In this document: in pieces, positions 5,188-61,570 of the stretch
How the letters are laid out: each line of letters starts with the position of its first letter
How positions within the stretch are numbered: the stretch's first letter is position 1
Assembly (NCBI GenBank): GCA_963716145.1
Contig: OY970292.1
Span: forward strand, 822,528-886,527
Origin: Candidatus Levyibacteriota bacterium
Lineage (GTDB): Bacteria > Patescibacteriota > Microgenomatia > Levybacterales > UBA12049
DNA length: 64,000 bases
Direction of reading: 5' to 3'
The notes under the pieces: model-generated
Database searches by the model: none
What the model was told of the DNA's origin: nothing
Seen by the model: only the letters and a program-made list of their open reading frames with translations
Made by a program: the position numbers and the translations under genes

Positions 5188-7377
5188 TCAAAAAGAGACT
5201 TTATACAGCTTTGTGTTTTGGTTTTGGTATACAAGCGTTCCCATCTTTTGGAATTTTTGCTCAGAAAGCGTAGGGTATTTTTGCTGCTCTAAAGACCCAA
5301 TGAAAACGTACTCCACTTTATATTTTTGGAGCAAGTTCTTAGCTACTTGTAAATCCTGGGTTTCATATATGGTTTTTATTTCGTTAATTCTAGGTGCGGG
5401 AATATCATATGTTCCGCGCCAGAGCCATTCATGCACTGTCCAGCCTAGAACAGTCGGGAGGCCGGTATTTGATGATACGCGGGCAAAATCAGTGTATGAG
5501 TCGCTTTGCGCTTCAAGAATTACAGGCTGACCCGTTATGTTTTTGTTAATCCACTCAATTGCAGTATAGTCATATGGGTAGAGAGTTTTAAGATAATCAG
5601 TTCCGTCCAGACCCTTTTGTGTTTTGAGATCGCCATAATACGATTTAATCGCGAGATAAGGATAGGCCATGACGAGGGTTATTAAGCTAATAACTAATAA
5701 CAAATAACTAATAACTAATAACGTTTTTTTATAATTTATAATTTGAAATTTGAAATTTGAAATTATTCTCACGATTATGTATCCGCAGGAAAGCGAGAGC
5801 ATTATAAATGCTTGAAAAACGAGTTTAAACATCGTATTTGCCCGGTAGTGAGCCGGGTAAATGTCTTTTAGGTAAATGAATTCAGGAAGAATAATTAGAA
5901 AAGTTGAGAGAATCAAGAGCAATAATACGAATATGTCTGCCTGCAAAAACTTTTTGGCTTTCCTCATAAACAGCAAATAGGAGAAAACAAAGAAGTAGAA
6001 GAACCCATAAAGTATGAGCAATTGCCACCAATATGAATGTTGGCAATGCTTTGCTTCAAACAGAAAAGGACCGATTTTACCGATTTTATTTAAAAAATTT
6101 GGGGCGCAAAGTATGCCAATACCGGAGGCAAAGGGCTTGAAAAAGTAGCTGTAGGGCATTGAAAATACAACCAGGCTTACAAAGACTATAAAAATAGAAA
6201 AAAAGAAGTTTATTAATTTTTTAGAATAAACATAAAAAAGCACAAGCGATGCAAGAAGGAGGTAAATCCCCCCATCCCATGCATTAGTCATATACATCAC
6301 TGAAAGTAAAAACCCAATCAGGATTAGACTCGGAAAACTCGGAATACTCTGAAAACCAGACTTTCTGACTGTCAGATTTTCAGACGACCTGATATTGCTG
6401 ACGTTCTGAGTTTTCTGAGTGTTCTGGAAAAAAGCAAGTAGTACAGCAATTGTGAGCAGTACAAATGGAATATCAAGAACATGTCCGTGCAGATCCGCAA
6501 CCACCCATGAATAAATCGGAAATTCATGAATTGTGTGATCTATAAAACGAGTCGCGTTGGGGTACCAGTATGAGTTCGGGAAGCTTAAGGGTAAGAATTT
6601 AAGCTGCCATAAAGGGACAGGATGCTCGGCTGTGTAGGGTTTGAAAAAAGCATAAAGAATGTGTAGATTTCCTGCAAAAGTGACAAGGCTGGCTGTTAAA
6701 AATCCTGCAGCAAAGTTTTTGATGCCAGCTATTTTTTTGTTTTTTTGCATAAGGGCATAAAGATTTGCGCCTAGAGAAAAGGCTTCTGTAAAGCAGAATG
6801 CAAAAATTGTGGAAAGCATGAGATTGAATGTAATTTTGGAAGGAATGTCTGATAATCTGGTCAATACAGCTGTAGCCAAGTGACCAAAGTAATAATAATT
6901 GATAAAAAACGGAGTAAACCACATGTCTTTTGGGGGGAAGTAGTCCGCTCTAAGAATTGAGTTTATAAATCCAAAATCCATATATTTTTCAAGCCCATGA
7001 ATCTCAGGATTAAAAGAATGAATATATGCCCAGAAAAATAGACTAAGCAGGAATAGTATTTCTTCAAAAAGCAATAGCTTCCAGTTAAGTTTTAGGATTT
7101 GTAGGGTTTTTGACCTCAATGGGATCAGTATGAAAAGCAGTATTGCAAGAAAAATAAAAATAAGAAAGGAGAAGAATTGAGTAAATGGGGTTAGATGCAA
7201 AACCCCAAAAATAAAAATCGCGTAAGACGTAAAAGCAATGCCGAGTATTTTTGAGAAAATATATCCGCGGTCAAAAAACTTTTCAAACAGGAAAAATGTT
7301 AGCGGCAAAAATCCGGTTTCCAACATTAAGATAGTTAACCACCATTGTAAAACTGAGTGAATATCGGAAGGAAGCAT
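5188..7377 (-). CDS. large polytopic membrane protein, DUF2298/GT-C-like (possible oligosaccharyl/glycosyl transferase)
   Basis: 729 aa, more than 12 predicted TM helices plus a C-terminal soluble domain; contains in-frame heptamer repeats (TAATAAC x5, AATTTGA x3.5). Confidence 0.4.
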   Translation of the reverse strand: MLPSDIHSVLQWWLTILMLETGFLPLTFFLFEKFFDRGYIFSKILGIAFTSYAIFIFGVLHLTPFTQFFSFLIFIFLAILLFILIPLRSKTLQILKLNWKLLLFEEILFLLSLFFWAYIHSFNPEIHGLEKYMDFGFINSILRADYFPPKDMWFTPFFINYYYFGHLATAVLTRLSDIPSKITFNLMLSTIFAFCFTEAFSLGANLYALMQKNKKIAGIKNFAAGFLTASLVTFAGNLHILYAFFKPYTAEHPVPLWQLKFLPLSFPNSYWYPNATRFIDHTIHEFPIYSWVVADLHGHVLDIPFVLLTIAVLLAFFQNTQKTQNVSNIRSSENLTVRKSGFQSIPSFPSLILIGFLLSVMYMTNAWDGGIYLLLASLVLFYVYSKKLINFFFSIFIVFVSLVVFSMPYSYFFKPFASGIGILCAPNFLNKIGKIGPFLFEAKHCQHSYWWQLLILYGFFYFFVFSYLLFMRKAKKFLQADIFVLLLLILSTFLIILPEFIYLKDIYPAHYRANTMFKLVFQAFIMLSLSCGYIIVRIISNFKFQIINYKKTLLVISYLLLVISLITLVMAYPYLAIKSYYGDLKTQKGLDGTDYLKTLYPYDYTAIEWINKNITGQPVILEAQSDSYTDFARVSSNTGLPTVLGWTVHEWLWRGTYDIPAPRINEIKTIYETQDLQVAKNLLQKYKVEYVFIGSLEQQKYPTLSEQKFQKMGTLVYQNQNTKLYKVSF
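5690..5765. repeat. two heptanucleotide tandem repeat tracts inside CDS 5188..7377: (TAATAAC)x5 (one variant unit) and (AATTTGA)x3.5
   Basis: direct reading: ctaataactaataacaaataactaataactaataac ... aatttgaaatttgaaatttgaaatt; encodes LLVISYLLLVISL and NFKFQI on the minus strand. Confidence 0.8.
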
Positions 7378-10590: not shown

Positions 10591-12285
10591 TCAGCGTGTT
10601 TTTTGAAAGATCATGATTTTTGGGTGATCAAAGACTGTGAAATTCTCATCAGCCGACTGATCGACAAGCGGAGTGTTGAGAATCGGGGTAGTTGGGAAAG
10701 ATGTAAATTCGGCAACTTTTTGGAAACCTAATTCTCCCGAAAATAATTTTTTGTAATAATTCGCTGTTTGCGGGTAGCATCTAAATGTGGGCAAGCGTTG
10801 GCAATCGGTTAATTTTTGAAGAGGCGTATATAGTCTGTTTGAGGCAATAACTATATAGTCGGTTTGAGCAAGCTGGTTATTTATTTCATTCCACTTTTCC
10901 TTTGTGTCAGGGTCGTAAAGTTTTAGAACTTGAGTGTTAAATTTTGGCGGTTGTCCCATTGGAAGCTGATCATCCCAATGCTCAACTGCCAGTGTTTTAT
11001 TTGTCGGAATATTATTGTAGATCCAGTTAGATGCGACAAGTCGTGTGTTGGGTTTTGTGTAAATCCGTATAAAGCTGATTGGCCAGATTAGGCAGGAAGT
11101 AAGAAGTAAGAAGTAAGAAGTAAGAATAATAGGTTTTAATTTGATTTTTTCCATAAATTTATAAACCATTACAGCTGCAAAAAGGGCAAAAAGAGGGTAT
11201 ACAGGAAGCATATAGCGCATAAATCCAACAGCAAATTTCCCAACTATAGAAACGTATATACAGAAAAAAACCAATATAATTAATTCTTTCCCAATTTGGG
11301 AAGACTTTTCTTTTTTGAAGATTAAATAAGTAAAATAAATAAATCCTAAAAACGCAAGTGCTGCAATTAAGGGGCCTAGTCCCCAAAGAAAAATATTTTT
11401 GAACTCATAGACATAAGGGATTTTACCTACAAATTGAAGCGTATACGGAAAGAAAAAAGGATTAATTGTGAGCGCAGATTGTTGAACAGTTTGCTGCCAA
11501 AAAGTGTCAAAATCAATCGCTGCATAAGGTTCCATAAACACAAACGTAAGCAGAGTGGATAGTCCTATTACAAATGCGTATTCCAGCAGATGCCTAATGG
11601 ATTTTGGCAAATGAGGTAGCCAGTGTTTAGGTCTATGCGGATTTTTTAAAAATATCAGAATAAAATCAGAAGTTAGCGCCAGGCCTATTGAAGCTAGCAA
11701 AACGCTTGCGCTTATTTTTGTGGCAAGCGCGAGACCAAAGAATAAGCCTATGACAACTGCGGTTTTAAGAGTGGGTTTTTCATAAAACCTGAGTAGGTTA
11801 TAGAGGGTTGCAAGGATAAAACAGGTTAAAAGTGTATCTACCGCATAGAAATGGGAAAGCTGAATTGGTAGAACGCTAACCGCGTAAAAAAATGCGCTTA
11901 TCAGGCCTACTGAGGAATTAAAAAGTTTACGGGCGATTTTAAAAAGTAGAATAATCGTAATAAGATCTGCAAAAGCAGATAAAACCCTTCCTAAAAGATT
12001 GATATTGCCATATTGTCCAAGAAATGGGTCGAAGACTGCCAGAGTGTTTCCTGTGACCCTTAAGAGGTACATGGGAAAGGATCCATAAGCAAAAAAATGC
12101 GGGTTCCAAGAGCTTTGGGGAGACAAGAATTCGGAAACACTAGTTGGAAATTTCAATTTATCAATTGTTGCGGTAATTGCCCGCTCATCCGGGTGCAAAT
12201 GAAATCCCTGGTCCCAATTAACATTATAAAGCCTAAGAAATGCAGCAAAAATAATAATGATGAATAAAATAATTTTAGTTTTCAT
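10591..12285 (-). CDS. GT-C fold membrane glycosyltransferase, ArnT/PMT-like (paralog A)
   Basis: 564 aa polytopic; first loop LRLYNVNWDQGFHLHPDERAI matches the D/E loop motif of lipid-carrier-dependent GTs; C-terminal soluble domain; (GAAGTAA)x4 in frame. Confidence 0.55.
   Translation of the reverse strand: MKTKIILFIIIIFAAFLRLYNVNWDQGFHLHPDERAITATIDKLKFPTSVSEFLSPQSSWNPHFFAYGSFPMYLLRVTGNTLAVFDPFLGQYGNINLLGRVLSAFADLITIILLFKIARKLFNSSVGLISAFFYAVSVLPIQLSHFYAVDTLLTCFILATLYNLLRFYEKPTLKTAVVIGLFFGLALATKISASVLLASIGLALTSDFILIFLKNPHRPKHWLPHLPKSIRHLLEYAFVIGLSTLLTFVFMEPYAAIDFDTFWQQTVQQSALTINPFFFPYTLQFVGKIPYVYEFKNIFLWGLGPLIAALAFLGFIYFTYLIFKKEKSSQIGKELIILVFFCIYVSIVGKFAVGFMRYMLPVYPLFALFAAVMVYKFMEKIKLKPIILTSYFLLLTSCLIWPISFIRIYTKPNTRLVASNWIYNNIPTNKTLAVEHWDDQLPMGQPPKFNTQVLKLYDPDTKEKWNEINNQLAQTDYIVIASNRLYTPLQKLTDCQRLPTFRCYPQTANYYKKLFSGELGFQKVAEFTSFPTTPILNTPLVDQSADENFTVFDHPKIMIFQKTR
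11096..11123. repeat. (GAAGTAA)x4 heptanucleotide tandem repeat inside CDS 10591..12285
   Basis: ggaagtaagaagtaagaagtaagaagtaagaat; encodes LLTSYFLLLTS on the minus strand. Confidence 0.85.
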
Positions 12286-13886: not shown

Positions 13887-15587
13887 TTAGCGTAGTTTTT
13901 TGAAGATAAATACTGTCGGGCGTTCAAAAACGGAAGCTGTTTCTTCAAAGCTAAAAACAGGATTGCCAAGGTAAGTAATATTGCAAAAAATATCACAAGG
14001 CGTTTCATAGATTTTTTGATAACCTGCTGCTTCCTTGGTTAGCAAAGAATAAAAACCGTAACCTTTTGGAAATTTACTAGCATTTAGCAGCCGGGATCTT
14101 AAAAGTCGCTGGCTGGGAAGAATAATATAGTCGGATTGCGATAGCTTTGTGCTTAATTCTTTGTCCAAAGAAGCTCTTCCAGGATCAAGATCATAAAAAT
14201 TGAAATCATGGATGTTTAAGAGGTGAGAATTAAAAGGTATGATTCCCAGGTCATAAGGTTCAGTTAAAATTGTAGCTGATTGTGCAATATTATTTTGGGA
14301 AAATTTACTTGCCGCTATTCTAGTATCAGGTTGCACAAAAGCGGTTATGAAATAGGACATTGAAAATATTACGCTTGTAAGCGTAAAAATACTTAATACT
14401 AAATACTCGCCTCGCGCCAGCGTCGACGCCAGGCGCGGCGAAGCGGGCTTAATACTAAATACTTTCTTGAAACTCTGCAGAAAGTCTGAAACAAAAATAG
14501 AGACTATTAAATAAACAAAAGGTAGGGTGGGCACCATGTATCGTGTCCATTTCGCATATAGAAATGCCTGGGGGAGGAAAAGAAGTAAGAAGTAAGAAGT
14601 AAGAAGTAAGAATGGCTGATTCTTTGTTTTTATTGCTTTATAAACCAAATAGAAAAAAGCCGGGACCAAAACGGCTGTCAGTACTGGGTTTATGAGAAAG
14701 GGAAGAATATGTAGGAACTGAAAAATAACAGGAGGCGTGTTGTAAAAAGATTGAGTGTAGAAAACCGGCGTTATTCCTGCTACCAAACTTCTTTCATAAA
14801 ATAAGGCAGCTCTGAACTCAGGCGCCAGATAATTTGGTGAGAAAAGAGCTGTTAAAGAAATTAGAAGCAGCATTCCCAATATTGAGTGTTTTGATATTGG
14901 GAGTAAGTTGGATTTTTGTTTTTTTATACTTGTGAGCAATATGGCAACTGGGAAAATTGCTAAAATCAGAAGATTTATCTTGGCTGCAGCCCCTATCGCC
15001 AGAAATAAAATTGAAATGTAGTAATTGATAATTCTTTTTGTTCTCAAAAATCTTAGAATAAAATAAAAAACAGTTATCGCACAAAATGCTCCAAGCCCGT
15101 CATAGGTTCCAAAATGGGCTTGCTGGATCAACCCGGTTGAAAAAACGGAAAGAAATAAAGCAAGTAAAGCCACTTTTTGCGACCAAAACTTTCCGCAAAG
15201 ATAGATTACATAAATGGTAAGTATAGAAAACACAGCAGAAATAGTGCGTAGAATAATTGCAGTTTGTGCGAACGCATCCGTAAGCTTAAATACCTGAAAA
15301 GACAGCAGGAATAGCGGTTTTAGTAAAAGAGTGAGTATTACCGGAAAATTACCGTAGGCAAATGTTCCTTTCAAAAGCGTTTCGGGATTTGCCAAAGATG
15401 ATTTTAGAACAAGGTCCACGATATTCCGCTCATCAGGGTGAAAATAAAAAGGCGAACCCCAATTTAGATTATAAAAACGGAGAAACGCTCCAATCAAAAT
15501 AAGGGATGCTATCAAAAGTTTTACTTTATGTGTTTTTAACAAATGGGACACAATGTTAATTGTAATAGCTTTGGCCACCGTTGACAA
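13887..15587 (-). CDS. GT-C fold membrane glycosyltransferase, ArnT/PMT-like (paralog B)
   Basis: 566 aa; LRFYNLNWGSPFYFHPDERNIV loop motif as in 10591..12285; similar C-terminal end (..IFxKxR); (GAAGTAA)x4 in frame. Confidence 0.55.
   Translation of the reverse strand: MSTVAKAITINIVSHLLKTHKVKLLIASLILIGAFLRFYNLNWGSPFYFHPDERNIVDLVLKSSLANPETLLKGTFAYGNFPVILTLLLKPLFLLSFQVFKLTDAFAQTAIILRTISAVFSILTIYVIYLCGKFWSQKVALLALFLSVFSTGLIQQAHFGTYDGLGAFCAITVFYFILRFLRTKRIINYYISILFLAIGAAAKINLLILAIFPVAILLTSIKKQKSNLLPISKHSILGMLLLISLTALFSPNYLAPEFRAALFYERSLVAGITPVFYTQSFYNTPPVIFQFLHILPFLINPVLTAVLVPAFFYLVYKAIKTKNQPFLLLTSYFLLLFLPQAFLYAKWTRYMVPTLPFVYLIVSIFVSDFLQSFKKVFSIKPASPRLASTLARGEYLVLSIFTLTSVIFSMSYFITAFVQPDTRIAASKFSQNNIAQSATILTEPYDLGIIPFNSHLLNIHDFNFYDLDPGRASLDKELSTKLSQSDYIILPSQRLLRSRLLNASKFPKGYGFYSLLTKEAAGYQKIYETPCDIFCNITYLGNPVFSFEETASVFERPTVFIFKKLR
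14582..14609. repeat. (GAAGTAA)x4 heptanucleotide tandem repeat inside CDS 13887..15587
   Basis: gaagtaagaagtaagaagtaagaagtaagaatgg; encodes LLLTSYFLLL. Confidence 0.85.
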
Positions 15588-15609
15588 ATGGCTTATAGAA
15601 AAGTATAAT
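15581..15609 (+). promoter_or_regulatory. consensus sigma70-type promoter TTGACA-17-TATAAT; -10 ends 7 nt before ATG 15617 (leaderless transcript predicted)
   Basis: ttgacaaatggcttatagaaaagtataat read directly; -35 overlaps the first codons of the minus-strand GT gene. Confidence 0.5.
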
Positions 15610-15616
15610 CCTCTCC

Positions 15617-15934
15617 ATGACTATTGAAAGATCGACTGGCAATCATATGCACCATAATCCTGGTAGGGTTTTTCCAGAGGGATATCGCGATACAGAATTA
15701 AGGAGAGTAAGAGTTGATCAAGTAGTTATTGTCGATTTTAGGTCGCGACCAAAACCTGAAAATAGAGTAGTTGTGAAAGTTAAAGGAGCTAATGAAAAAG
15801 GCGGAGTTTTAGTTGAGCCGCTTGAGGAAACGGAACATTTAAACATAGGTAAACCAGGTAAAAAAATAGGTTTAAGCGGAAATACAAGAGTTTACGCTTC
15901 TTTTTCAACTCCATTACTGTCCGAAGCCCTTTAG
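15617..15934 (+). CDS. small hypothetical protein (105 aa) with atypical composition, or untranslated RNA
   Basis: ORF follows a perfect promoter; Arg/Val/Gly/Glu/Pro-rich unlike neighbours; lies in the 360-bp gap between two minus-strand genes. Confidence 0.3.
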   Translation: MTIERSTGNHMHHNPGRVFPEGYRDTELRRVRVDQVVIVDFRSRPKPENRVVVKVKGANEKGGVLVEPLEETEHLNIGKPGKKIGLSGNTRVYASFSTPLLSEAL

Positions 15935-15948
15935 TGCCTAAATAAATC

Positions 15949-17235
<1,287 letters not shown>

Positions 17236-17367: not shown

Positions 17368-18765
17368 TCACAGCAGGAAGAAAAGCAAAGAGCCAATGCC
17401 AATTATAGTTCCTATTCCGATAAAACCAAAGAGCAAAGCAGAGCTTCCGCCTTGAGGGATTGGCGGAGTTGTGATTTGGGGCTCAGGAGATGTTGTTGCA
17501 GAAGGTGTTGAAACAATAGGAGTTGTAATGATGATAATTGGCGTAGGCACCTCTGTTGGAGGAGTTGTGGGTATTACTGTTACTGTTGGGACCGGAGTTG
17601 ATTGCGGCGTGGTTGGGGAAGGGGGCAGCGTTGGGGATATTGAAGGCTCCACAAATTGACTGCCCTCAGCGTAAACGGTAAATGATTGAGTAAGGGTTTT
17701 TATAATGCCTGATGCGTCCAAACTCTTGATGGTAAGAGTGTGCAGGCCGGGCGCGAGCTTGGTATCCGGACGGAATTTCCAGTTACCGCTACTGTCTGCC
17801 TGTACGGTTGTAGTTATCTCCTGCTCCGATTGAATGGTAATTTCAACGTCGTTTCCGGGGATGGCTTTCCCTTCAAAAAGCGGCTGCTGATCTTTAAATT
17901 CCTGCGAAGTCTTGGGAGTTAAAATTTGAGGACCAGATGATGATGTTAACACCTCAGGTGTCGGAAAGCTGGTGATCTGAGCGGATTCCGATGCAGATGA
18001 AGTCAGGGCATTGATGCTTACGCTAAAATCATAATCTTTCGAAAGAATTACAGGCGGGACGGGACTTGTTTGAGATGCAAGAACAGAAACCCGGGATTTA
18101 AGAGCCGGGTTGACAATTTGAATGCGAAGAACCGTATCAGCAGGCATCTCTAAAGCACTTGAGAGGTCTTTTTTGAGCATATCTTTAAGAGGCAGATTGT
18201 AGCTGCCATCCGGCTTGAGAAGGGTTGATAGGGTTTGAGAGTTATCGGATGACACATATGCAATTGCCTCAGTGGGCATACTGCCATCATCAAGACTGAC
18301 CTGCCCGTTTATTATTGTTTCTGTTGAATTACCGGCTTCGGTGCTTGCAGCAGTTATAATCTCGTAGGGTACGGAACTATCCGGAAAAACCTTATCCCCT
18401 GAAACTATCGAGAAAAAGTATTTTGTAGAAGATTTAAGCTTGGGGATTGTAACGTAATGAACTCGGTGAGGCACAGGAGAGCCTGAATCTCTTACGTCAA
18501 AAGCAACTTTACCCAAGTTTGCATCCTGGCCATAAGTAACACTTCCCGGAACACTCTCATCGGTAATATATGAGACAGTATAAGCAGTTGAGGAAATATT
18601 ACTTATTTGTAGATCCTTTGGGATATTGCCGACAGCTGCTTTGGTGCCCAACAATACGGCATTCCTGCTCAGCCAAAAAATAGCAGCAAGTGAGAAGAAC
18701 AGGACGATTAATCCCAAACCTCTTGGAAGGCGTTTGTTCAAAATGTTATTTCTTACGTGTGTCAT
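17368..18765 (-). CDS. cell-surface protein with N- and C-terminal TM anchors, Ig/FN3-like middle and Pro/Thr-rich stalk
   Basis: 465 aa; N-terminal LGLIVLFFSLAAIFWL; C-terminal PT-rich region then GGSSALLFGFIGIGTIIGIGSLLFFLL. Confidence 0.45.
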   Translation of the reverse strand: MTHVRNNILNKRLPRGLGLIVLFFSLAAIFWLSRNAVLLGTKAAVGNIPKDLQISNISSTAYTVSYITDESVPGSVTYGQDANLGKVAFDVRDSGSPVPHRVHYVTIPKLKSSTKYFFSIVSGDKVFPDSSVPYEIITAASTEAGNSTETIINGQVSLDDGSMPTEAIAYVSSDNSQTLSTLLKPDGSYNLPLKDMLKKDLSSALEMPADTVLRIQIVNPALKSRVSVLASQTSPVPPVILSKDYDFSVSINALTSSASESAQITSFPTPEVLTSSSGPQILTPKTSQEFKDQQPLFEGKAIPGNDVEITIQSEQEITTTVQADSSGNWKFRPDTKLAPGLHTLTIKSLDASGIIKTLTQSFTVYAEGSQFVEPSISPTLPPSPTTPQSTPVPTVTVIPTTPPTEVPTPIIIITTPIVSTPSATTSPEPQITTPPIPQGGSSALLFGFIGIGTIIGIGSLLFFLL

Positions 18766-19078: not shown

Positions 19079-19692
19079 TTATTTTTTAAAATATCCCCGG
19101 CCGTGAATATCTAAAGTGAGAGTATTCAATTTTGGATCTTTATTTACGGAAAGAGAATCAATACTTGTAATCCGATTAAATTGCGTGAGAGATTTGGCAA
19201 AATTCATAAGGTCGGCGTATGAGCCTTGGGCTTGCAGGGAAAAAGCATAAGAAGATTCGCTCGCTGTTTTGCCGCCAATTAATTGGATATTTGAGACAGC
19301 TAAAGATGTTGTTTGAACATTTGTCTTTTTTGACAATGCGAAGATTTGTCCCATAAGTCCGGTGCCTGAGCAGTTTGAGGAATTGCCTCAAAGACAACAG
19401 GCAGTTCAGAGCTCAGCTGAGTATATTGCTGTTGAAGAGAGCTGAGATTATTAATTTTTGTCCCCAATTTTTCATGAACCAGTTGGCTATCGGCGAGCTG
19501 CTTTTTTAGTGTTACAATCGTTGAAAGCGTTGGGTTAATGGCAAAAATTCCAAAAAATGACATTGCTAAGAAAGTCAGGATAAGCGTTGTGATAATTCTT
19601 GTATTCTCCTCATGGAAATTAGGCAGAAGCTTCAGATATTCACGATATTTACTGGTTGACAGGTTTTCAAAGTAATTTTTTGGAATTTTCAT
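19079..19692 (-). CDS. PilO-like type IV pilus assembly protein, split into two overlapping frames (19300..19692 and 19079..19354)
   Basis: N-terminal part has TM plus coiled coil (typical PilO N-terminus); C-terminal 91-aa ORF in another frame overlaps by 55 nt; combined length about 200 aa fits PilO; break probably an indel. Confidence 0.4.
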
Positions 19693-20244: not shown

Positions 20245-20476
20245 AGCAAAAATAACGCTGGTTCAGCGGCTACTTTTAGCATAGGCAAATGAGTAAGAAA
20301 TGTAAAGTATTTCTAGATTTATCTAGAAAAGTTTTTTCAAGTATGATATACTTGCTTTAATCTCAAAGCTTAAATCGCAAAGCGCAAAGCTACAGCGGAG
20401 AGTTTAAAGCTTAACAGTTTTGAATTTTGAACTGTAATTTTGAGTTTTGCCTTTTGAATTTTGAGTTTTATTTTAT

Positions 20477-27600: not shown

Positions 27601-28420
27601 GACAAGTTTAAAGTTAAAAGTTAAAAGTTCAAAAGTAGTTAAAAAACCAGCTAAGGCGCCTAAAGTTCTTCTTAAAAAAGAAGCGTTAAAGGTCGTAAAG
27701 TCTGGCGAAGCTAGATCCCGCTCCGCGGGACAAAAGACCGTTTCAAAAACTGTTAAAGCAGAATCTATTAATCTAACAGTCAGCGTTTATGGCTTGGACG
27801 GCAAAGTTAGCGGAAAAGTATCTTTGCCAAAAGAAATTTTTGGAGAGATAGTTAATAAAAAACTTTTGGCACAAGCTGTACGGGTTTACCAAGCAAACAA
27901 AAGACAAGGAAATGCAAATACCAAAACCCGGGGAGAAGTAGACGGATCAACTAGGAAGATTTACAAACAAAAAGGAACGGGAAAAGCACGACACGGCTCG
28001 GTTCGTGCCCCTATATTTGTAAAAGGTGGAATAGTTCATGGCCCAAGAGTTCGTGATTTTGGCCTTGAATTACCCAAAAAAATGAAGAGAAAAGCGCTCT
28101 TTTCCGCCCTTTCGGCAAAATTGCAGGATGGAGAAGTAAAAGTTCTTTCAGGTCTTGAAAAAATTACACCTAAAACTAAACAATTTGCAGCTGTCATAGA
28201 AAAATTAGCATTTGAAGGAAATAATAAAAAATTGCTTTTAGTTGCGCCTGATAATTTTGACAACGCGAAGCGGGCATCGCGCAATCTTACAGGCATAACA
28301 AATACATCGGCTCTTAGGCTGAACGCGCTTGAGGTATTGAGTAGTAAATATCTACTTTTTACAAAAGAAGCAATTATTGAGATGGAGACGTATTTTTTGA
28401 AAAAAGGAGCAACAAAATGA
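27593..28420 (+). CDS. rplD: 50S ribosomal protein L4 with Lys-rich N-terminal extension
   Basis: ATG 27593 after aaggagga; MSKTSLKLKVKSSKVVKK...; core INLTVSVYGLDGK...YKQKGTGKARHGS is typical uL4. Confidence 0.85.
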   Translation: MSKTSLKLKVKSSKVVKKPAKAPKVLLKKEALKVVKSGEARSRSAGQKTVSKTVKAESINLTVSVYGLDGKVSGKVSLPKEIFGEIVNKKLLAQAVRVYQANKRQGNANTKTRGEVDGSTRKIYKQKGTGKARHGSVRAPIFVKGGIVHGPRVRDFGLELPKKMKRKALFSALSAKLQDGEVKVLSGLEKITPKTKQFAAVIEKLAFEGNNKKLLLVAPDNFDNAKRASRNLTGITNTSALRLNALEVLSSKYLLFTKEAIIEMETYFLKKGATK

Positions 28421-30240: not shown

Positions 30241-30317
30241 GGAAAATAAATTTCAAATATCAAATTTCAAATATCAAATTTCAAATAGATTTGATAGGAA
30301 ATTGGAAATTGGAAATT
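30241..30317. repeat. intergenic tandem repeats upstream of rpsC: (AAATTTCAAATATC)x2.7 and (GGAAATT)x4
   Basis: aaatttcaaatatcaaatttcaaatatcaaatttcaaatag ... ggaaattggaaattggaaattggaaatt, directly before RBS aggagg. Confidence 0.85.
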
Positions 30318-30339
30318 GGAAATTCTCCGAAGGAGGCAT

Positions 30340-44970: not shown

Positions 44971-45316
44971 GGCTGCTTCTGTACCTCTTCTTTCAGCTGT
45001 CCTAGGAGTTCTTTCAGCTGTCTCCTCTTCTGTATCGCTGTAGCCTGCGCCTCTGTCAAGGTAGCAGCGGTTGCTGGATCTGGGGAGGGGGCATCTGCAG
45101 GTCTGCTAGCATCACTCCTAGTAGGTGGCCCTTTTTTCTTTTCGCCTTTTCCTTTTTTTTCAGTTTTGGGCCTTTTTTTTTGGCATCAAAGCTTTTGGCT
45201 GCAGCCAATTCGTCTGCGTTCATACCGGGTGTTTCTGTTGCTGCTGTTCCTGGTGCTGACATATTACTACTATCATAGTTGAAACTTTACCACCGATCAA
45301 GTATGATTTTAAGTAT

Positions 45317-48300
45317 ATGCTTGCAATGGAAAGCGGAGATAGTGGTGGCGGAAAATTGGGGCGGGCCACCGAACGGGCCAAAACTGCCATCAAATCAAAG
45401 TTTAGTAATAAATCTGATGCAGCTCCAAGTGATGCTCCAAAGCACCCGGCTCTTAATACAATTAAAGAGAGAATATCTCCTTTTTTACTCAGGGAGCAAA
45501 CAGGAACAGGTGAAACAACTCTTGATTGGCAGGGACGGGAAGTGCAAATTAAAGAGCGGACCGGCTCTATTGATCCCGAATTGGTCACTGATTTTTCTAA
45601 AAGCCTGAAAGGCGACCTGGAAAGATTGATGGATATTCAGCAAAATACACCGGACGTCTTTGATAGATTGATTAACGACCCGCATTTTCGCCCGTATAGA
45701 GATCTTTTTGATAAATATACAAGGCTTAAAGAAGGCTCAGCTGCGGTAGGCGGGCACGCGATCAGGGAATTTGATTCAACATCGTTTGATGACTACATGG
45801 GGACTGATGCTGGATTCGCGACTGCTTTTGAAATGCGGAAATTAAAACTTCAGGATATGGCAACCAACGCCGCGGTGTTTCTTGATGACAATCTTCCCAC
45901 GACAAATCCTGAGGAAATTGAAGAACAGGATGTCAATACAGGACCGGGAGGTAAGGCTAGGGAAATAGGTAGAAAGGTTGGGCATTTTTTTCAAGAACCG
46001 CGTACCAGATACGGACGAAAAATACCTATAGATTTGGGTATTACGACTCTGGACTCAAAAGGAGATATAGCAGCGGTCATAACTGCTGCAAGTACTTTCC
46101 TTGGGGGGTTGGGAGCACTGGGTGGCGGTCCCGTAGGAGGATTGATTGGAGCTGGTATTCCACCGGCTGTTGTGGGGGTAATACACGCCTTTCATAGGGG
46201 GGAGAGGGTTACTGTTGAGCAAGCAAGAGCCGCTTTACGTATTGCCCGAGCAACGGATCCTGTAAGACGGGAATGGGCCCGTGAGATGTATAACGTAGAC
46301 TCAAGCAATCTTGGAATTGATAACAACGGAAATGTAGTTATACGCCCAGGTATCAGAAATAACAGGCAGCTTGCCAGTCCGGCAAAACAGAGTGAGGTTT
46401 TGCGCGATATTTTGGTTCGGGAAAATGCACAAATCATGAAAGCTCAGGAAGCGATGGGTATACGCCGGGAACAACGCGGTGGAATGGATTTGGTGGGATT
46501 GACTCGCCCCGGGCGGAATGAGCAATTTGCCCAACGCGATATACCTATTGAGATAAGTGTACAGCGCGAATTTAAGCGGGACCCTAGGTTAGTTGATAGA
46601 AATGGTAACACCTGCCAATTTCAAAATGCACAAGGTGAGTGGGTGGATAACGCCAATTTTAATTGGCGGAATACAAACCGATTAGCAGCATGGGATCTGC
46701 GTCAAGAAATTCACAGAAGGCTCCTTTCAGAAAAGATAACAGGAGACTTTAATGATATTGCTGAATGGGGCAAAAATCACAATACGGATTTAGGCAGCGC
46801 AATCACAAAAGCAAAAGAGCGCGGACCATTGATACTTACGGAAAGAAAAGCGGCATTAAATGAGCAAGACCGGAATCTTACCGAGGATCAGCGTCGCTTA
46901 AGAGCAGAAATTCCGCCTTTTACAGAGCTGGATACTGTCTTAACTCAAGTAGCTGCTGCCAGAAGAGCTGCTGAACAGGCAAGGAGAAATGTTACACGGG
47001 TAACCGCTCACCCAACTGGATTAACTGATGAATTATCGCTTTTAACTCAAGTATTAAATGATGTTCCAGCAGGCGGAGCTGCTCCGTTTGAACTGGATGT
47101 TATGCATGAGGGGGTTCGCCTACGCATTACCAGTATTGCCGGAAGAGAAGCTGAAGCATTGAGGACTTACCAGAACGCAGTTAATACAATTTCCGGATCT
47201 GTGCCTACAGGAAAAGGAGCTGACCAAATTATCACTGCAAGACTAAAAATTGCTAAGGATATTTACGATCAGCAGATGATTCCAATTAATAGAGACAAAA
47301 CAGCTGTCACCGCAGCCCGGCAGGCCATAGATGCTGCAAATACCGCAGCGCGTGAAGTATTTAATAGGTTTAATACTCTTGATGCGCAAAGAGAAGCTAC
47401 AGCAACTACATCAACAGAGATGCAGACCGCAAGAACAACTATCGAAGGATGGACCACTCCCGGAGTTGCTGATTTAAGTACAGCAGAGTTACAAAATCAA
47501 TCTTTCGATGAGCTCTTGACCCGCATAAATGCGGTAAATGCAGGGGGTGGGGGTGGCTGGCCGGAAGCTGAGAATGATACTCCTGAGAACAGAGAACGTC
47601 TGGTACGTGCGATGGCTGAAGCAAGAGCTATAGCATTAGAGCCACGCGTGGCGACACCAAGCGCCAATTTCGAGGATGCGATTAATCCCAATGGTTTTGC
47701 ATTGCTCGAAACAGATTTGTTGACAAGATCATCTGAGGATATAAGAAATATAATGGCTGATTTGATTGCAAGGGCTCCAGCTGGATCACCTCTTAACGGT
47801 TTGGTCATTCCTGCGAATGCAATAGATCAAATAAATGAGATCAAAAATGAAGCACAAGCCCGCTTTACAGCCCGCTTAAGAGCCATGCAGGCACTTGACA
47901 GAGAGATTACCAGCAGAAAAACGATAATCGAAGGCCAGAAAACGCGTATTGATAGAGAGGGTATTCAAACTCCCGAACTTGATGCTATAGAGAGAGCATA
48001 TCCGCTGGTAGATGATATCAGGAGCACTATTGATGCTATGACTGTTGTACCGCGGCTTGTTGAGTTCCTTGATACAGCGCAGGCAGCCACCCAAGCCCGT
48101 TATTTACCTGAGGAGCAAGCAAATAACCATTCAATAGCCTATGCCAATATAATGGAGTTGATTTTTAATCACCGCGATGATAATGATGCGAAGGTCGGTA
48201 CAGTAACCGGTAGGGCAGTTGCTTTTGAAAGAAACAGTAATTTCCTGACAGAAGATGTGCTCCGAGATCTGCTGGTACAGCAGTTTAATTTAGTAGGTCC

Positions 48301-50535: not shown

Positions 50536-50982
50536 TTAACTGCCAAAAGTAGGTATTTTTAGGCTACGAATATCCCCTAGGCCAAATGCGCTTAGGACAA
50601 TTTGTACTATGAAGTAAGCAACAAAGGCGACAATGAGACCCACAATGGCTGCAACGATATGCTTTCTCGCTTCATCAACTTTTCCTTTGTCTCCACCGGA
50701 GGTTATCCATCTGATTCCACCATAAACTAGGTAAAAAAGAGCGATGATAACTGCCGCGATCAGAAGAAATGTTAATACAGTGCCTATGATGCCACCTGCT
50801 TTATCTGCTTTGAAGTTGTCGCAGAGTTTGAAAAAAGTTGAACTCCGAGGGCAGGGATCAAGATCTGTCTCTGCAAACGCAGGAAGAGCTGAGTAGGCGA
50901 AAGCACTAAGTCCTAATAATATTGCTGAAACCTTTTTCATAAGTACATATCTATGATAGAACAATGTTTTTCTGCTTGTCAA
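50536..50982 (-). CDS. VirB2/TrbC-like two-TM pilin-like protein (paralog 2)
   Basis: 148 aa; signal-like N-terminus; YGGIRWITSGGDKGKVDEARKHIVAAIVGLIVAFVAYFIV. Confidence 0.45.
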   Translation of the reverse strand: MTSRKTLFYHRYVLMKKVSAILLGLSAFAYSALPAFAETDLDPCPRSSTFFKLCDNFKADKAGGIIGTVLTFLLIAAVIIALFYLVYGGIRWITSGGDKGKVDEARKHIVAAIVGLIVAFVAYFIVQIVLSAFGLGDIRSLKIPTFGS

Positions 50983-51321: not shown

Positions 51322-51495
51322 ACATATACAGTACTAAGTTCGGGCGATAAAAGCAATAGTACTAGGACAATTTTTAATTTTCAGTTTTCAATTTTCATTG
51401 AATTTTCAATGACTAAATGTTTAAAAATTAAAACATTGTGATTTGATTGAAAATTGTAAATTTCAAATTGAAAATTATAGTGTTACAATAATTGT

Positions 51496-52929
51496 GTGGA
51501 GCAAGTTCATTTTGAATCGCTTTATCCTGATACAGCCTGGTCCTCAGAAATTGAAAAACTGGGAAGTTTTATAAAAGACGGTACATCCTGTCAATTATTG
51601 AGTATACCTGGTGCCGGAAGATCAACTATTTTGGGTCTTTTGGCGCATAACAGCAAAATACGTATAAAGCATTTCGGTAAGAATCAGGCTGCAATCCATT
51701 TTGTAGCTGTTAATTTTTCAGAGATTAAAAAACGTCCGCTTTTTGACGTGATGAAGTTTTTGTTTCTGTCTCTTGCCGACTCTCTTCGGGCGCGCAAAAT
51801 GGAGGAATATGAGAAGATTAATGATCTGTTCAAAGAATCTTTGGGATTTAATGATGAGCTTGTGCTTTTTCAGGCTCTAAAAGAAGCTATTGATTATCTT
51901 GCTCTTGAAAGAAAATTTAAGATTGTTTTTTTGTTTGATCGATTTGAGGAATATGTGCCCAAAGTAACCAGCGAGTTTTTTACCAATCTCAGAACTCTTA
52001 GGAATCGTGCCAAATATCAATTTTCAGTGATTTTTTCTCTCAACAGACCGCTTGAGGAGCTCTTGGAACAGGATCAGCTTTTCGACTTTTATGAATTTAT
52101 CGCAGGACATTACGTTTACTCAGGCCTATCTGATAAAGTCACAACAGATTTCCGCGTTGCATATATAGAAAAAATTACAGGAAAAAAAATTCTGCCAAAA
52201 ATACTTACCGGTATTCTAGAAGAGACAGGGGGAGTGGGAAGACTTATCAAGTTATCAGTTGAGACAGTCCTGGCGAATAATAAATTCGAAGCACGAAGCA
52301 CGAAATCCGAGACAAATATAAATAACAAAAATCCAAATACGAAAAATGTTTCGAGTTTCGACCTGCCTGCCGGCAAGGCAGGTATTCGGATTTCGGATTT
52401 GGGTTTGGGGGAATATCTTTTTTCACAAAAACCAATCCAAAGTGCTCTAATGGAGATTTGCCGCTCGCTTTTACCAGTTGAGCAGGCGGCACTTATTAAT
52501 AACAAATTTGATGACCCGCAAGCAGAAAGTTATCTTGAGACTGTTGCAATAATTAAAGCTAGGAAAATACAAATTCCTCTTTTTGAGAAACATATTAAAT
52601 CGCACGTTGGGAAATTTCAGCAAGATGCCAAAAAAATTGTATATGATCAAAACACAAACGCTATAAAAATGAACGAGGTTGTCTTATCTGATCAGCTGAC
52701 TTCGTCTGAGTTTAGACTGCTGAAATTTCTTCTGCAAAATCCTGACAGAATTGTTGATAGAGACGCGCTGATTGGCGTTGTATGGTCAAGCGTAAAATCA
52801 ACCGCCGGTATAACCGATCAGGCAGTTGACCAACTGGTTTTTAGAGTAAGACGGAAAATAGAAGACGACCCTAATAATCCCGTTCACCTGCTTACTGTTA
52901 AAGGGCGGGGATTTCGATTCGTTTCCTAA
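51496..52929 (+). CDS. regulator: N-terminal P-loop-like ATPase (Walker A Lys replaced by Arg) fused to C-terminal OmpR/PhoB-type winged-helix DNA-binding domain
   Basis: 477 aa; LSIPGAGRSTILGLL; IVFLFDRFEE (Walker B-like); C-terminal ...LTSSEFRLLKFLLQNPDRIVDRDALIGVVW...DQLVFRVRRKIEDDP...LLTVKGRGFRFVS matches the trans_reg_C pattern. Confidence 0.6.
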   Translation: MEQVHFESLYPDTAWSSEIEKLGSFIKDGTSCQLLSIPGAGRSTILGLLAHNSKIRIKHFGKNQAAIHFVAVNFSEIKKRPLFDVMKFLFLSLADSLRARKMEEYEKINDLFKESLGFNDELVLFQALKEAIDYLALERKFKIVFLFDRFEEYVPKVTSEFFTNLRTLRNRAKYQFSVIFSLNRPLEELLEQDQLFDFYEFIAGHYVYSGLSDKVTTDFRVAYIEKITGKKILPKILTGILEETGGVGRLIKLSVETVLANNKFEARSTKSETNINNKNPNTKNVSSFDLPAGKAGIRISDLGLGEYLFSQKPIQSALMEICRSLLPVEQAALINNKFDDPQAESYLETVAIIKARKIQIPLFEKHIKSHVGKFQQDAKKIVYDQNTNAIKMNEVVLSDQLTSSEFRLLKFLLQNPDRIVDRDALIGVVWSSVKSTAGITDQAVDQLVFRVRRKIEDDPNNPVHLLTVKGRGFRFVS

Positions 52930-52994
52930 CATTTGTAATCTTCCTGTAATTCAAATATCAAGTCTATTTTATCAACAGATACTATAATCCTCCT

Positions 52995-55900
52995 ATGATA
53001 GAGCAAAAATTGACAGCCAGAGAGGCTTCCCGATATGATAGAAGAGGAGCAAAATATATGTCAGAAACAGGAGCAGCCGTATTGGAAAGATCGGAAGAAT
53101 CAGATGAAGAAAAACTGTATAAAAAATGGGAGCCTTTTTTGGCGCAAGCTACCAAGCCCGAAGAACGCGCCCACATACTTGATCTTATAACTCAACGTAG
53201 AGAACCACCCTCAGAAGATCCAAGTGAATTAACGCAGGCCAGATTGAGAGAAATGTCCCAGGATGAGGTTGATAAGAAATTTGCCGCCATGATCAAAAAG
53301 CCTGAGATTAACAGGCCTGAAGATTTAAAGGGGCTTGACAAGATACTGGATAAGTACCAGGAGCAGGCAAAGGGCGCAGACGGTCTATTGGGAGATGAGT
53401 CGGTAGCACCAGGGGAAGTCTTGCGGGATAAGGACAGCTGGGCAGAGTATGGATGGAGCGATACTGAGAAAATCAGAGTTGCTGGTGACCTAAAGACCAC
53501 CCTTGCGAGCTTAAAGCTTACCGATAAACAGGTAGATACTATGATGGAAATTTTTCTTTCCGAAGGTAAATTGCCTGAACATTTAACAAAAGGAAAAATA
53601 GAAGAGATATCAGCCAACATATGGGATGAATGGGAGAAAGACCCAAATATCAGACATGATTATAAAAATGAATTCGATATATTTGTAATGCAGAAGTTGG
53701 GAATTACGGAAAAGCAAATAAAGCATTTTATTTTGACTGATAAATTTGAACAGGATAATGATATGTATGTTGATTATAATTCTCCACGAAATATTGAGGC
53801 CCTTGCCTGGCAGATCATGCACACCCCCGGTAAAGGATACGCAGGGTGGGGTATTAAGGGCGAGCGTCCGCTTCTTGAGATGCGGATAGTAAAGAATGCT
53901 GATGGAACTGTTGACACAGACAAGAGCCGTTACCGTGTAAATACAGCAAATATGGTTGCTTGGGCACGTTACAGCATGTATACCGCCTATGATCTTGACC
54001 GTGAAACTCCTCACAATTTTTTTCAGGAAATTGCTTTAAAGAAAAGATACCCGCTTTCTCTTCAAGAGATGCTTCTTAATCCTGATCAGTATTTTGTTTC
54101 GGAAGACGGAGAGACAAAATATAAACAAATGCTGCTGGAGTGGTATAAGGAAGCGGCTGTTTTTACAACTGTCAGGGGCTGGGATGTTGCTTACCGTGGA
54201 GTAATAGGAGATAGCGAGGAGCTGATGAAGGTTTTTAGGGAAATGTATAACACCCAAAATTTACTGACCAGAGGAGCTCTTGGTTCCAACATACTTAATC
54301 TTATGACAACTATGCCATTGGATTTTCAGGGGACAAAAGACGGTCAATGGAATAGCGATAGTAAGATGGGGGCCGGTTGGATTGATATCTATAGAGCTTA
54401 CGACAGCATGACTGATTTTGATAACCTGCAAAAGATACTTGGCAAGGGCTCAAAATTTTTTACCCGCGCAGGTTTCTCGGAGGCGATAAAAGAAGTGGAA
54501 AAAGGCAAGATTACAGCAACAGGTATAACTAAGTCAAGAGTGTTTATGGGTCGTAAGGAGCTTGAGTTTTTTAAAAATGCATTTGATGACAAGGGGGAGA
54601 TTTCATCTGAGGCGAATAAGGTAAATTTTATAAAACTTATTAATATTTTCGGAACCAAGCAGCCTGGAGCCGGAGTTGAGTTTGCAGTGCGTTTTGCACT
54701 GCGCAATGCTATTGCTGAAAAATACGGGGAGGAAGTGTACGTTAAAAATGCAAAGGGTGAAATCATGAAGGATGAAAATGGAAAAAAGATAAAAACGCAT
54801 GCTTTTGTTACTACACAAGGGGAGAAAAAAGGCGACGAGATAGAAAACAGGATAGCAGATAATGAAAGTCTATATATAGCTGAGGCAATTGCCTGGTCGC
54901 TGGCCAGACCATTTGGCGCGGCCGCCAAAAATGATCCTGATTCCATAGCGCATGACTATATGGCCAAAATTTATAATACCCAGCTGCTGCGTGAGAAATA
55001 TCCTCATCGCGGAGACAAACTTGGTAATGAGCTGACAATGAATTTAATCAAGCGGACAGGTGTTGATATTCTTAACGCTGTAGTAACAGAAGCCCAGACA
55101 CCCGAGCTGGATTCAGAGGGAAAAGTAATTTATAAAACAAAAGACGATAGGGCAAACAACCGCCCGGTAATGCGTGACAAAACTCCAATGGAACTCTTTG
55201 TTGAGCTGTCTGAGTTCAGGACAATAGCAGCTAGTGAGATACGGTTAATGAGAGATAAGCTTATGGGAATGACCAGGGGAACAGAGGAATGGAAAAGGCA
55301 AAAGGATTTGGTAGATGCCTACGAACAGCAATCAGAGCAAAAATACCAGAATATAGCTTCCCAAATATCTATCAGACAAAGAGTGCTTTCGAACTATTAT
55401 GAAGATCATTTGAGGTATGCCTCTGACATATTTAAGCAGGTTATGAACGCGGATGAAATAGGATTTGATAAATTCACCGATTACAATGTCTTCGGAGGTG
55501 TGCGGTTCAAGCAGGCGGAATTTCAGAAAGAGGTGCAGGATACCTGGATTCATAAGATCCGTTACATGCTCGATACTTATTCGAGTCTTAACTTTAATCA
55601 GACTGTGCGTGTTTTGGATCAGAAAGAGACATCAAGACGGCATTGGGACGATCATCGTGAGTCTGAACCTGCTTTTCATGATGTTCCGCTGGGTGAGGCG
55701 CTTTTCGGGCACGAAATGCTCAATATACCAAAATTCTGGAAAAGAGACGATAAAGGGAGGCCGATAAATTTGAGAGATAATAAAGGCCGGAAGATGAAGG
55801 GACTCTACGAAATTGATTATTTGAAAGTACAGGAGAACAAACAGGATGTCTGGAAGCAATGGTTTATGATCAAAGTTGCCGCGGATTTACGCTCGCACAA

Positions 55901-60544: not shown

Positions 60545-61570
60545 ATGATAATTCGTCCCATAACTTCTTCTGAAAAAAAACAGTTCAATGCTGTGGTAGG
60601 TCATCCGCTTCAATCTTATGAATGGGGGGAGTTCCGGGAGAAAACAGGGGTAAAAGTGATTAGGCAAGGTTTTTTCACTAAGGAAAATATGACTTCAGGT
60701 TTTCAGCTAACTATTCATCCCATTCCGCATTCTCCTTTTACAATCGGATATTTACCCAAAGGTGAGTTGCCGGGCAAAGAGCTATTGAAAGAGTTGAAAA
60801 AAATCGGCAAAGAAGAAAAATGTATTTTTATCCAACTCGAGCCAAATGTTATTGCTTCGCAAATTTCAAATTTCAAATTTCAAATTTCAAATTTAGAGCT
60901 TCGGCAGGCCGCGCATCCGCTTTTTACAAAATATAATTTTGTTTTGGATATTACCAAATCCGAAGACGAGCTCCTCAAAAATATGCATCAAAAAGCCAGG
61001 TACAATATAAAAGTTGCGCAAAAAAACGGAGTCGCGGTAGTTGAAGATAATTCGAAAAAAGCCTTCGAGGCATACTTGAAATTAACCCATGAAACAACAG
61101 AAAGACAGAAATTTTATGCGCACACAGAAGAGTATCACAAGAAAATGTGGGGAGCGCTTCAAGGTCAGAATTTGGACAAAAATAAACTAAGTGCACATTT
61201 ATTAACGGCAAAATATAAAGGAAAGATTTTAACTGCTTGGATTTTGTTTGTCTTTAAAGACACGCTTTACTATCCTTACGGTGCGTCAAGTAGTGAAAAC
61301 CGTGAAGTAATGAGCAGTAATCTGATGATGTGGGAAGCGATACGGTTTGGCAAAAAATTGGGACTTAAAAAATTTGATATGTGGGGAGCGTTGGGTCCAA
61401 ATCCTGATAAAAATGATCCATGGTATGGATTTCACAGTTTTAAGCAAAAATACGGACCTGAACACGTTGAGTACATGGGGAGTTTCGATTTGATAGTAAA
61501 TCCAGTTTCGTATAAGTTCTACAAGATAGCGGACAAACTTCGTTGGCTCATGTTAAGATTAAAGAAGTGA
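60545..61570 (+). CDS. FemAB-family aminoacyltransferase (peptidoglycan interpeptide-bridge formation)
   Basis: 341 aa; N-terminal HPLQSYEWGEFRE (FemABX QSWEW-like) and GNAT-like C-terminal half; (CAAATTT)x5 in frame at 60860-60894. Confidence 0.65.
   Translation: MIIRPITSSEKKQFNAVVGHPLQSYEWGEFREKTGVKVIRQGFFTKENMTSGFQLTIHPIPHSPFTIGYLPKGELPGKELLKELKKIGKEEKCIFIQLEPNVIASQISNFKFQISNLELRQAAHPLFTKYNFVLDITKSEDELLKNMHQKARYNIKVAQKNGVAVVEDNSKKAFEAYLKLTHETTERQKFYAHTEEYHKKMWGALQGQNLDKNKLSAHLLTAKYKGKILTAWILFVFKDTLYYPYGASSSENREVMSSNLMMWEAIRFGKKLGLKKFDMWGALGPNPDKNDPWYGFHSFKQKYGPEHVEYMGSFDLIVNPVSYKFYKIADKLRWLMLRLKK
60860..60894. repeat. (CAAATTT)x5 heptanucleotide tandem repeat inside the FemAB-family CDS
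   Basis: caaatttcaaatttcaaatttcaaatttcaaattt; encodes SQISNFKFQISNL. Confidence 0.85.

Follow-up and report, generated by a model that had tools for sequence, protein, structure and literature searches.

A candidate leaderless orphan gene on the mirror arm of a conserved glycosyltransferase promoter in a Candidatus Levyibacteriota bacterium

Introduction

Leaderless mRNAs have been described for the lambda cI gene, which is transcribed from PRM, and for mycobacteria (PMC3898074, PMC4633059, PMC10491246). Here we describe a short open reading frame (ORF), ORF105 (105 codons, 15617-15934, plus strand), in a 64,000-nucleotide stretch of contig OY970292.1 from a Candidatus Levyibacteriota bacterium; this whole stretch is called the window, and coordinates refer to it unless the locus of a relative is named. 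ORF105 is similar to the known leaderless mRNAs in that a -10 hexamer lies 7 nt before the AUG, a Shine-Dalgarno sequence is absent, and the 5' end is predicted to fall on the A of the AUG; the divergent gene, in turn, would start with GUG. It differs from them in that the start is a prediction made from sequence, the host belongs to the Candidate Phyla Radiation (CPR), and the promoter matches the full consensus (12/12 positions). No description of leaderless transcription in CPR was found in the literature searched, in a search that was not exhaustive.

Divergent promoters that arise from sequence symmetry were reportedly described by Warman et al. in Nature Microbiology in 2021; the shared symmetric element is said to be the -10 and the starts to be 18 bp apart. 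The locus presented here resembles them in that two opposing promoters lie on a short near-symmetric stretch, one conserved promoter bringing an opposing one with it. In contrast to them, it is the -35 (TTGACAA/TTGTCAA) that is shared here, and the starts predicted at 15617 and 15551 stand back to back at a distance of 66 bp. Like orphan or de novo genes, ORF105 is short, has no true relative, and is located in a lineage-specific spacer downstream of a pre-existing promoter. Its codon usage, however, is already host-like, and no non-coding precursor was found in relatives. A third likeness is to the type II toxin-antitoxin pairs that occupy the same position in two relatives (L103 and the contig of P0011), which are also small, antisense to the gene string, and immediately after the oxidoreductase gene. 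Unlike these pairs, ORF105 is single and partnerless, and matches no toxin, antitoxin or defence profile.

With moderate confidence, we favor the reading that ORF105 is a genuine orphan gene restricted to this lineage, and that its mRNA, which would be leaderless, is produced from the arm that mirrors a conserved glycosyltransferase promoter. The locus is a new example of known mechanisms rather than a system of a new kind: it combines a bidirectional promoter with a gene that is an orphan and probably leaderless; its protein falls in no known family. If ORF105 is transcribed and translated as predicted, it would provide the CPR, a group in which promoter and translation-initiation rules rest on very few data, with a clean and experimentally tractable case of a leaderless gene under a full-consensus promoter. 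The 90-bp fragment at 15540-15630 would then be a compact two-way promoter suited to reporter systems, and the combination of the same promoter and start position with unrelated orphans in relatives would be a small natural system for the origin of new genes in streamlined genomes. No current paradigm is changed by these findings.

The promoter and predicted transcript start of ORF105

The plus-arm promoter consists of the -35 hexamer TTGACA (15581-15586, plus strand), which lies within a block conserved with the relative L125, a 17-nt spacer (15587-15603), and the -10 hexamer TATAAT (15604-15609). It is followed by the all-pyrimidine discriminator CCTCTCC (15610-15616) and a C-A-T (Y-R-Y) start element that extends to 15618. 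The initial annotation had pointed out this exact -35/-10 pair with a 17-nt spacer 7 nt before ATG 15617, and the sequence reads so. When both strands of the 64-kb window were scanned for the consensus, the site at 15581 was the sole 12/12 match, and four 11/12 sites were found by the same scan. A full 12/12 consensus is unusual among natural promoters, as is known from those of E. coli. The general view of the initial annotation, that perfect promoters usually mark small RNAs or small proteins of high expression, gains no support from the present data. The chance expectation of 12/12 sites per window was 0.015 in 200 first-order Markov simulations, which is imprecise because it derives from 3 hits, and ~0.09 with independent bases at 40% G+C. 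Scaled to the 1.14-Mb genome, roughly 0.3-1.6 perfect sites are expected. The hexamers alone are thus not above genome-wide chance, and the context must carry the argument. The plus-arm site is placed above chance by three properties: its intergenic position, an ATG located precisely where the transcript is expected to start, and its conservation in one relative.

Positions 1-7 after the -10 hexamer are free of purines, and the first purine is A15617 of the ATG. C15616-A15617-T15618 forms a Y-R-Y element centred 8 nt after the -10. In re-analysed E. coli saturation data, a Y-R-Y element at position 7 or 8 was the start site in 93% or 79%, respectively (PMC12641261); the 49-species dataset of the same source has one CPR species, Nanosynbacter lyticus. 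By analogy, it is inferred that plus-arm transcription would begin with A15617, which also opens the start codon, resulting in a leaderless 5'-AUG mRNA. The leaderless geometry proposed beforehand was thereby borne out in silico, since no other purine comes between the -10 and the A of the ATG and the Y-R-Y element is centred there. The site combines the properties of a sigma-70-type promoter, namely the hexamers, a spacing of 17 ± 1 nt, a Y-R-Y purine start, and conservation in non-coding DNA of relatives, the last of which was observed in one close relative (L125) for the plus arm and in four genomes for the opposing minus arm described below.

ORF105 is preceded by CCTCTCC and has no GGAGG-like motif, that is, no Shine-Dalgarno sequence. 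This is no obstacle because most of the 62 gene starts inspected in the window also lack a Shine-Dalgarno sequence and have just A/T-rich sequence upstream. Clear GGAGG-like sites were seen before a few genes (for example at 19692, 28417, 31957, 40472, and 58460), and the genome appears to use mixed, mostly non-Shine-Dalgarno initiation.

A mirrored promoter conserved among relatives

On the minus strand, a -35 hexamer TTGTCA (15582-15587) is followed after 17 nt by a -10 hexamer TACAAT (15559-15564), which together form a 10/12 site in the consensus scan. This minus-arm -35 shares 5 of its 6 bases with the plus-arm -35, because TTGTCAA is read as TTGACAA on the opposite strand and the stretch is nearly symmetric. 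TACAAT is followed by 7 nt (taacatt) and then GTG 15551, with T-G-T at position 8. The minus arm precedes a gene for a PMT_2-family (GT-C) glycosyltransferase (13887-15551, minus strand; Pfam PF13231), the start of which bears on the placement of both promoters. The glycosyltransferases of relatives have 14-25 residues ahead of the conserved motif LRFYNLNWG. The window gene has 23 residues before this motif when it is read from GTG 15551 and 35 when it is read from TTG 15587, the start of the mechanical longest ORF. From the same GTG-TC onward, the L130 gene can be aligned with it codon by codon, and its TACAAT-7 nt-GTG layout is the same. From the N-termini of the relatives and the alignment with L130, the start of the glycosyltransferase gene is most likely GTG 15551, 36 nt inside the longest ORF, which places the promoter outside the gene. 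The initial annotation had let the -35 hexamer overlap the first codons of the glycosyltransferase gene; this overlap is probably an artefact of the longest ORF beginning at TTG 15587. It is inferred that the minus arm gives a glycosyltransferase transcript beginning with 5'-GUG.

The minus-arm hexamers were invariant in four genomes. TTGTCA-N17-TACAAT was found exactly in L125 (5981-6009), L130 (5348-5376), L106 (3815-3843), and L118 (2934-2962), in each case in non-coding DNA at the corresponding junction. Just 6 occurrences of this composite pattern were counted on both strands of ~1.03 Mb of loci. As judged from these alignments, the plus-arm promoter is the mirror arm of a conserved putative glycosyltransferase promoter, a relation that had been missed before. 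The layout downstream of the minus arm is not uniform. In the window and L130, the glycosyltransferase start codon comes directly after the -10, unlike in L125, where the conserved promoter is followed by a leader of ~75 nt (6010-6085, plus strand of that locus) that is rich in repeated TTTCGGATTT-like units before the ATG.

The plus arm is partly retained in these relatives. In the plus orientation of the window, L125 reads AATTGTAATgGCTTTGGCCttCGTTGACAAATaGCTTATAagatgGTATAAa-gcagcct-ATG, in which lower case marks differences from the window. The core at 15557-15597 (41 nt) is 90% identical in L125 (BLAST, E 9e-8), and by eye the match can be followed beyond this core, across the -10 and up to an ATG that is likewise offset by 7 nt. 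The plus arm of L125 (TTGACA-17-TATAAA-7-ATG) opens a 224-aa antisense ORF, and TTGACA-17-CAAAAT-8 nt-ATG opens a 222-aa antisense ORF in L106 and L118. L130 has no antisense gene and carries AATCTG at the position of the plus-arm -10. A plus-arm -10 is thus accompanied by a cargo ORF in the window, in L125, and in L106/L118, which are three independent cases, and both are absent in the one contrasting case, L130; the count is small. Non-conservation in close relatives had been named in advance as a finding that would speak against the site. On this point the outcome was divided: ORF105 itself was present in no relative, whereas the promoter and the position of the start codon were kept in the closest one, L125.

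The three cargo proteins of 105, 224, and 222 aa showed no mutual similarity in Smith-Waterman comparisons against 500 shuffles (P = 0.23, 0.98, and 0.45). The 224-aa protein of L125 matched itself alone in 5.8 billion protein clusters, the one database searched with it. The gene for this protein (5277-5951, minus strand of L125) has 45% G+C in a locus of 39%, and the 222-aa ORF (L106 3115-3783 and L118 2234-2902, both minus strand) has G+C contents of 0.39/0.25/0.58 at codon positions 1/2/3, which is odd compared with native genes.

Coding capacity and predicted product of ORF105

ORF105 encodes 105 aa, ends with TAG at 15932-15934, and runs antisense to the surrounding gene string. A codon model was trained on 52 genes of the window and compared with 136 chunks of true genes of ORF105 length and 544 off-frame chunks. 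The codon log-likelihood of ORF105 was 0.219 bits/codon, corresponding to the 36th percentile of the true-gene chunks. None of the 544 off-frame chunks attained this score, and all five alternative frames of ORF105 were negative. The G+C contents at codon positions 1/2/3 were 0.53/0.40/0.23, a pattern typical of coding sequence in an AT-rich genome. Since off-frame chunks carry a stop-codon penalty, the test was repeated on stop-free runs. Random stop-free runs of at least 90 codons had a mean of -0.07 (sd 0.08), compared with 0.126 for ORF105 on the same scale, and 1% of them reached ORF105. The likelihood ratio for coding versus random stop-free ORFs, estimated from the two distributions, is ~17:1, which is supportive but not decisive. 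A random sequence of 397 nt, the length of the spacer that holds ORF105, would at the same composition contain a complete ATG-initiated ORF of 105 aa or more with P = 0.0036. As judged by these sequence statistics, ORF105 is probably coding. The description of a leaderless small ORF therefore gained support in that codon, frame, and length statistics all depict a genuine-looking coding ORF. The product had also been described as Arg/Val/Gly-rich and unlike host proteins. Val, Arg, Gly, and also Glu are indeed enriched relative to the proteins of the window, but the codon usage is host-like.

The ORF105 protein is predicted to be small, soluble, slightly basic, and beta-rich. It gave no significant match in Pfam, NCBIfam, PHROGs, PADLOC profiles or PDB sequences, and matched itself alone in a word-indexed search of 5.8 billion protein clusters. 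When 1.84 billion representatives were searched exhaustively with HMMER, the only hits were the protein itself and P0122 (2,925 aa). P0122 was rejected as a homologue: its ~14 near-identical repeats each match 28 residues weakly, at ~25 bits, and the hit is an artefact inflated by the repeats. Nucleotide-level searches (tblastn, blastn, and tblastx) of 129 related loci, of metagenome and viral collections, and of phages and plasmids returned no relative of ORF105. The sole other carrier of ORF105 is the contig L001, which is 100% identical to the window over 1,965 bp. A type II toxin-antitoxin module is not indicated, as ORF105 is a single ORF, no second ORF of at least 60 aa is present at 15552-15948, and no domain match was obtained. 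Our guess is that ORF105 has an accessory, dispensable function, because this junction is occupied in relatives by toxin-antitoxin pairs or by orphan genes unrelated to it.

The junction in related genomes

ORF105 and both promoter arms take up most of a lineage-specific spacer of ~397 bp (15552-15948) between the stop of an oxidoreductase gene and the start of the glycosyltransferase gene. Apart from the promoter core, nothing in the spacer resembled the relatives or other parts of the window. A miniature inverted-repeat element (MITE) or insertion sequence (IS) remnant was considered for the spacer and rejected, because no convincing flanking repeats were found, the short repeats present were at chance level, and no other copy was found in the window or in the 129 related loci.

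In ~75 relatives (14 genome loci and 61 metagenome loci), the oxidoreductase gene has the glycosyltransferase gene as its direct neighbor, both being on one strand. Among the relatives whose junctions are given below, the identity of the oxidoreductase was 79-84%, and L125 (84%) was the closest one with DNA. The resolved junctions range from overlap (up to 14 nt, with one 4-nt overlap, ATGA) to a gap of ~60 nt, as compared with ~397 bp in the window. The genes overlap by 14 nt in L126 and by 8 nt in L128, and are separated by 6 nt in L131, 21 nt in L002 and in the contig of P0012, and 37 nt in L132. Other junctions are occupied. Antisense occupants are the 224-aa ORF in L125 and the 222-aa ORF in L106/L118, and sense ORFs of 214 and 70 aa are present in L070 and L120, respectively. 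In two more distant relatives, antisense genes lie directly after the oxidoreductase gene: a toxin-antitoxin-like pair of DUF2283 and DUF4258 in L103 (852-1344, minus strand), and a CopG-antitoxin gene with a 102-aa gene in the P0011 contig. Small accessory genes may have landed at this junction repeatedly.

Competing explanations

If ORF105 is a real orphan gene with a leaderless mRNA, a sigma-70-type RNA polymerase holoenzyme would bind TTGACA-17-TATAAT, and transcription would be initiated at A15617, as expected from E. coli and cross-species rules, because 7 pyrimidines follow the -10 and C-A-T stands at position 8. The 5'-AUG mRNA would be translated without a Shine-Dalgarno sequence through direct 70S or initiator-tRNA-dependent binding, like other leaderless mRNAs. 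On the opposite strand, TTGTCA-17-TACAAT-7 nt-GTG 15551 would drive the glycosyltransferase gene. Competition between the arms for the polymerase is probable, because their -35 hexamers have 5 bases in common. As no terminator was detected, plus-arm transcripts probably continue antisense into the oxidoreductase gene. ORF105 would thus sit antisense in a conserved string of pilus-like genes, a Big_13 surface protein, the FAD oxidoreductase, and PMT-type glycosyltransferases.

Several points weigh against this proposal. The case for expression of ORF105 is made at the level of sequence only, and in a genome of 1.14 Mb the occurrence of one perfect consensus site would not be surprising. A shadow ORF inside a real gene (47500-47826) scores above ORF105 in the stop-free test. 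ORF105 is without a homologue, and the nearest sampled relative is just 84% identical in the oxidoreductase. L001 was left out of the conservation counts because its independence from the window is not established. The single-sequence AlphaFold2 model is unreliable (pLDDT 40.9), giving a hint of three beta strands at residues 36-68. In addition, the terminator scan lists nothing at 15900-16000 after ORF105.

The symmetric -35 would offer a ready-made leaderless slot, and unrelated orphans may have been repeatedly installed in it or born there (105, 224, and 222 aa, with L130 having the promoter only), which would make the junction a promoter-anchored hotspot of gene birth or capture within one Levyibacteriota subclade, in a reduced CPR genome. 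This wider idea is tentative, and we consider it rather doubtful; it draws on four genomes compared solely as DNA and predicted proteins.

The strongest rival holds that only the minus arm is selected. The near-symmetric -35 (TTGTCAA/TTGACAA) would then yield an opposing promoter almost free, and ORF105 would be a young proto-gene or a non-functional ORF, possibly arisen de novo. This is consistent with the invariance of the minus-arm hexamers and their spacing in four genomes, compared with a plus-arm -10 that varies as TATAAT, TATAAA, CAAAAT or is absent. The antisense ORFs at this slot are mutually unrelated, and ORF105 and the L125 ORF match themselves alone in the protein databases searched. 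ORF105 stops 14 nt from the stop of the convergent gene and the L125 ORF overlaps that gene by 11 nt, as if each were simply read on to the next stop. However, the plus arm (12/12) is a better match than the minus arm (10/12), which is not expected of a by-product, and an ATG stands exactly at the predicted start site in both the window and L125. Moreover, the codon usage of ORF105 is within the body of the real-gene distribution, and at 40% G+C chance is very unlikely to produce ORFs as long as 105-224 codons. We regard a mere by-product as unlikely, although it is the rival to be taken most seriously.

An RNA may instead be the functional product, acting as an antisense RNA or by transcriptional interference against read-through from the oxidoreductase to the glycosyltransferase gene, with the ORF being incidental. 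Over its full length, such a transcript would be antisense to the read-through and, without a detectable terminator, would reach the 3' end of the oxidoreductase gene; the two genes overlap or abut in most relatives and are presumably co-transcribed. On the other hand, the covariance models of Rfam 15 gave no match at the gathering threshold, nor at E <= 10 in 15450-16050, and folding z-scores of +0.73 and +0.41 against shuffles revealed no excess structure on either strand. A small RNA, which the initial annotation had offered as an alternative, was dropped on these two results. The strong frame-specific codon signal and the length of the ORF are also left unexplained by a role as RNA only. 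A purely RNA function is therefore improbable, whereas a dual role as protein and RNA may exist.

Least likely of all, and hardly credible to us, is a coincidence of a chance consensus with a chance ORF in an AT-rich spacer that is not transcribed: perfect sites are expected at ~0.3-1.6 per genome of such size and composition and -10-like hexamers are common just upstream of starts here, these regions being A/T-rich, but L125 retains both the promoter core and the ATG offset, the site is intergenic, and the ORF-length and codon statistics speak for a gene.

Gene neighborhood and additional features of the window

Relatives of the flanking oxidoreductase place the genome in Candidatus Levyibacteriota of the CPR. 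The gene encodes an FAD-dependent amine-oxidase-like oxidoreductase (15949-17235, minus strand; Pfam PF01593) and is convergent with ORF105. Their stop codons are 14 nt apart, with no terminator-like hairpin between them in the terminator scan. Also on the minus strand are genes for two PMT-like membrane glycosyltransferases (10591-12285, PF13231; 12282-13847, no Pfam match) and a Big_13/fn3 surface protein (17368-18765, assigned by Pfam). Upstream of these neighbors, the arrangement in relatives includes PilO-like genes. The G+C content around ORF105 is 0.37-0.39, equal to that of the surroundings. Judging from gene order and composition, the neighborhood is a conserved syntenic cluster and not a foreign island, and only the ~397-bp spacer is lineage-specific. 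The term island used earlier is accordingly not supported, as the gene string is conserved Levyibacteriota synteny with the same G+C.

Other strong intergenic promoter matches in the window are likewise 4-12 nt from start codons (45279, plus; 50982, minus; 63829, plus; 15587, minus). The match at 45279 (site 45279-45319) reads TTGAAA-17-TATGAT-9 nt-ATG 45317 and opens a gene of 1,051 aa without a Pfam match, and that at 63829 is 4 nt from the start codon. At 50916-50982 on the minus strand, the ATG of a 126-aa T4SS-pilin-like protein (PF18895) is preceded, at a distance of 12 nt, by an 11/12 promoter (TTGACA-18-TATCAT). Read mechanically, the ORF there would begin at TTG 50982, the first codon of the -35 hexamer, a longest-ORF artefact as at 15587. 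At 51470-51498, TGT-TACAAT-6 nt-GTG 51496 opens a 477-aa ORF. In general, -10-like hexamers accumulate 0-8 nt before the start codons of the window, a count that is confounded by the A/T-richness of these positions. TATAAT followed by a pyrimidine tract and ATG occurred 4 times in ~1 Mb of the loci and the window together, with two occurrences in the window. At 52983-53060, TATAAT-CCTCCT-ATG (52995) shows the same layout as ORF105 before a 1,071-aa ORF without a Pfam match. An 11/12 promoter at 53010 followed by GAGGAG and ATG 53058 provides a conventional alternative, leaving the start of the 1,071-aa ORF ambiguous.

Tandem Repeats Finder (TRF) found 13 distinct tandem arrays in the window, 10 of which have a 7-nt unit; an extra row is a 14-nt re-reading of one of them. 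The 7-nt arrays include those at 5687-5722, 5740-5764, 11096-11126, 14580-14612, 16519-16555, 20418-20469, 27604-27636, 30248-30324, and 60860-60894. Six of the 10 are perfect, and most are within ORFs. These arrays are candidate phase-variable sites because a slip of one unit would shift the frame. The short-read contig L001 ends exactly inside two 7-nt arrays. The array ATTTTCC x5.3 in the oxidoreductase gene encodes WKMENGKWKMEN, and the arrays AAGAAGT x4.7 and GAAGTAA x4.4 are located in two glycosyltransferase genes.

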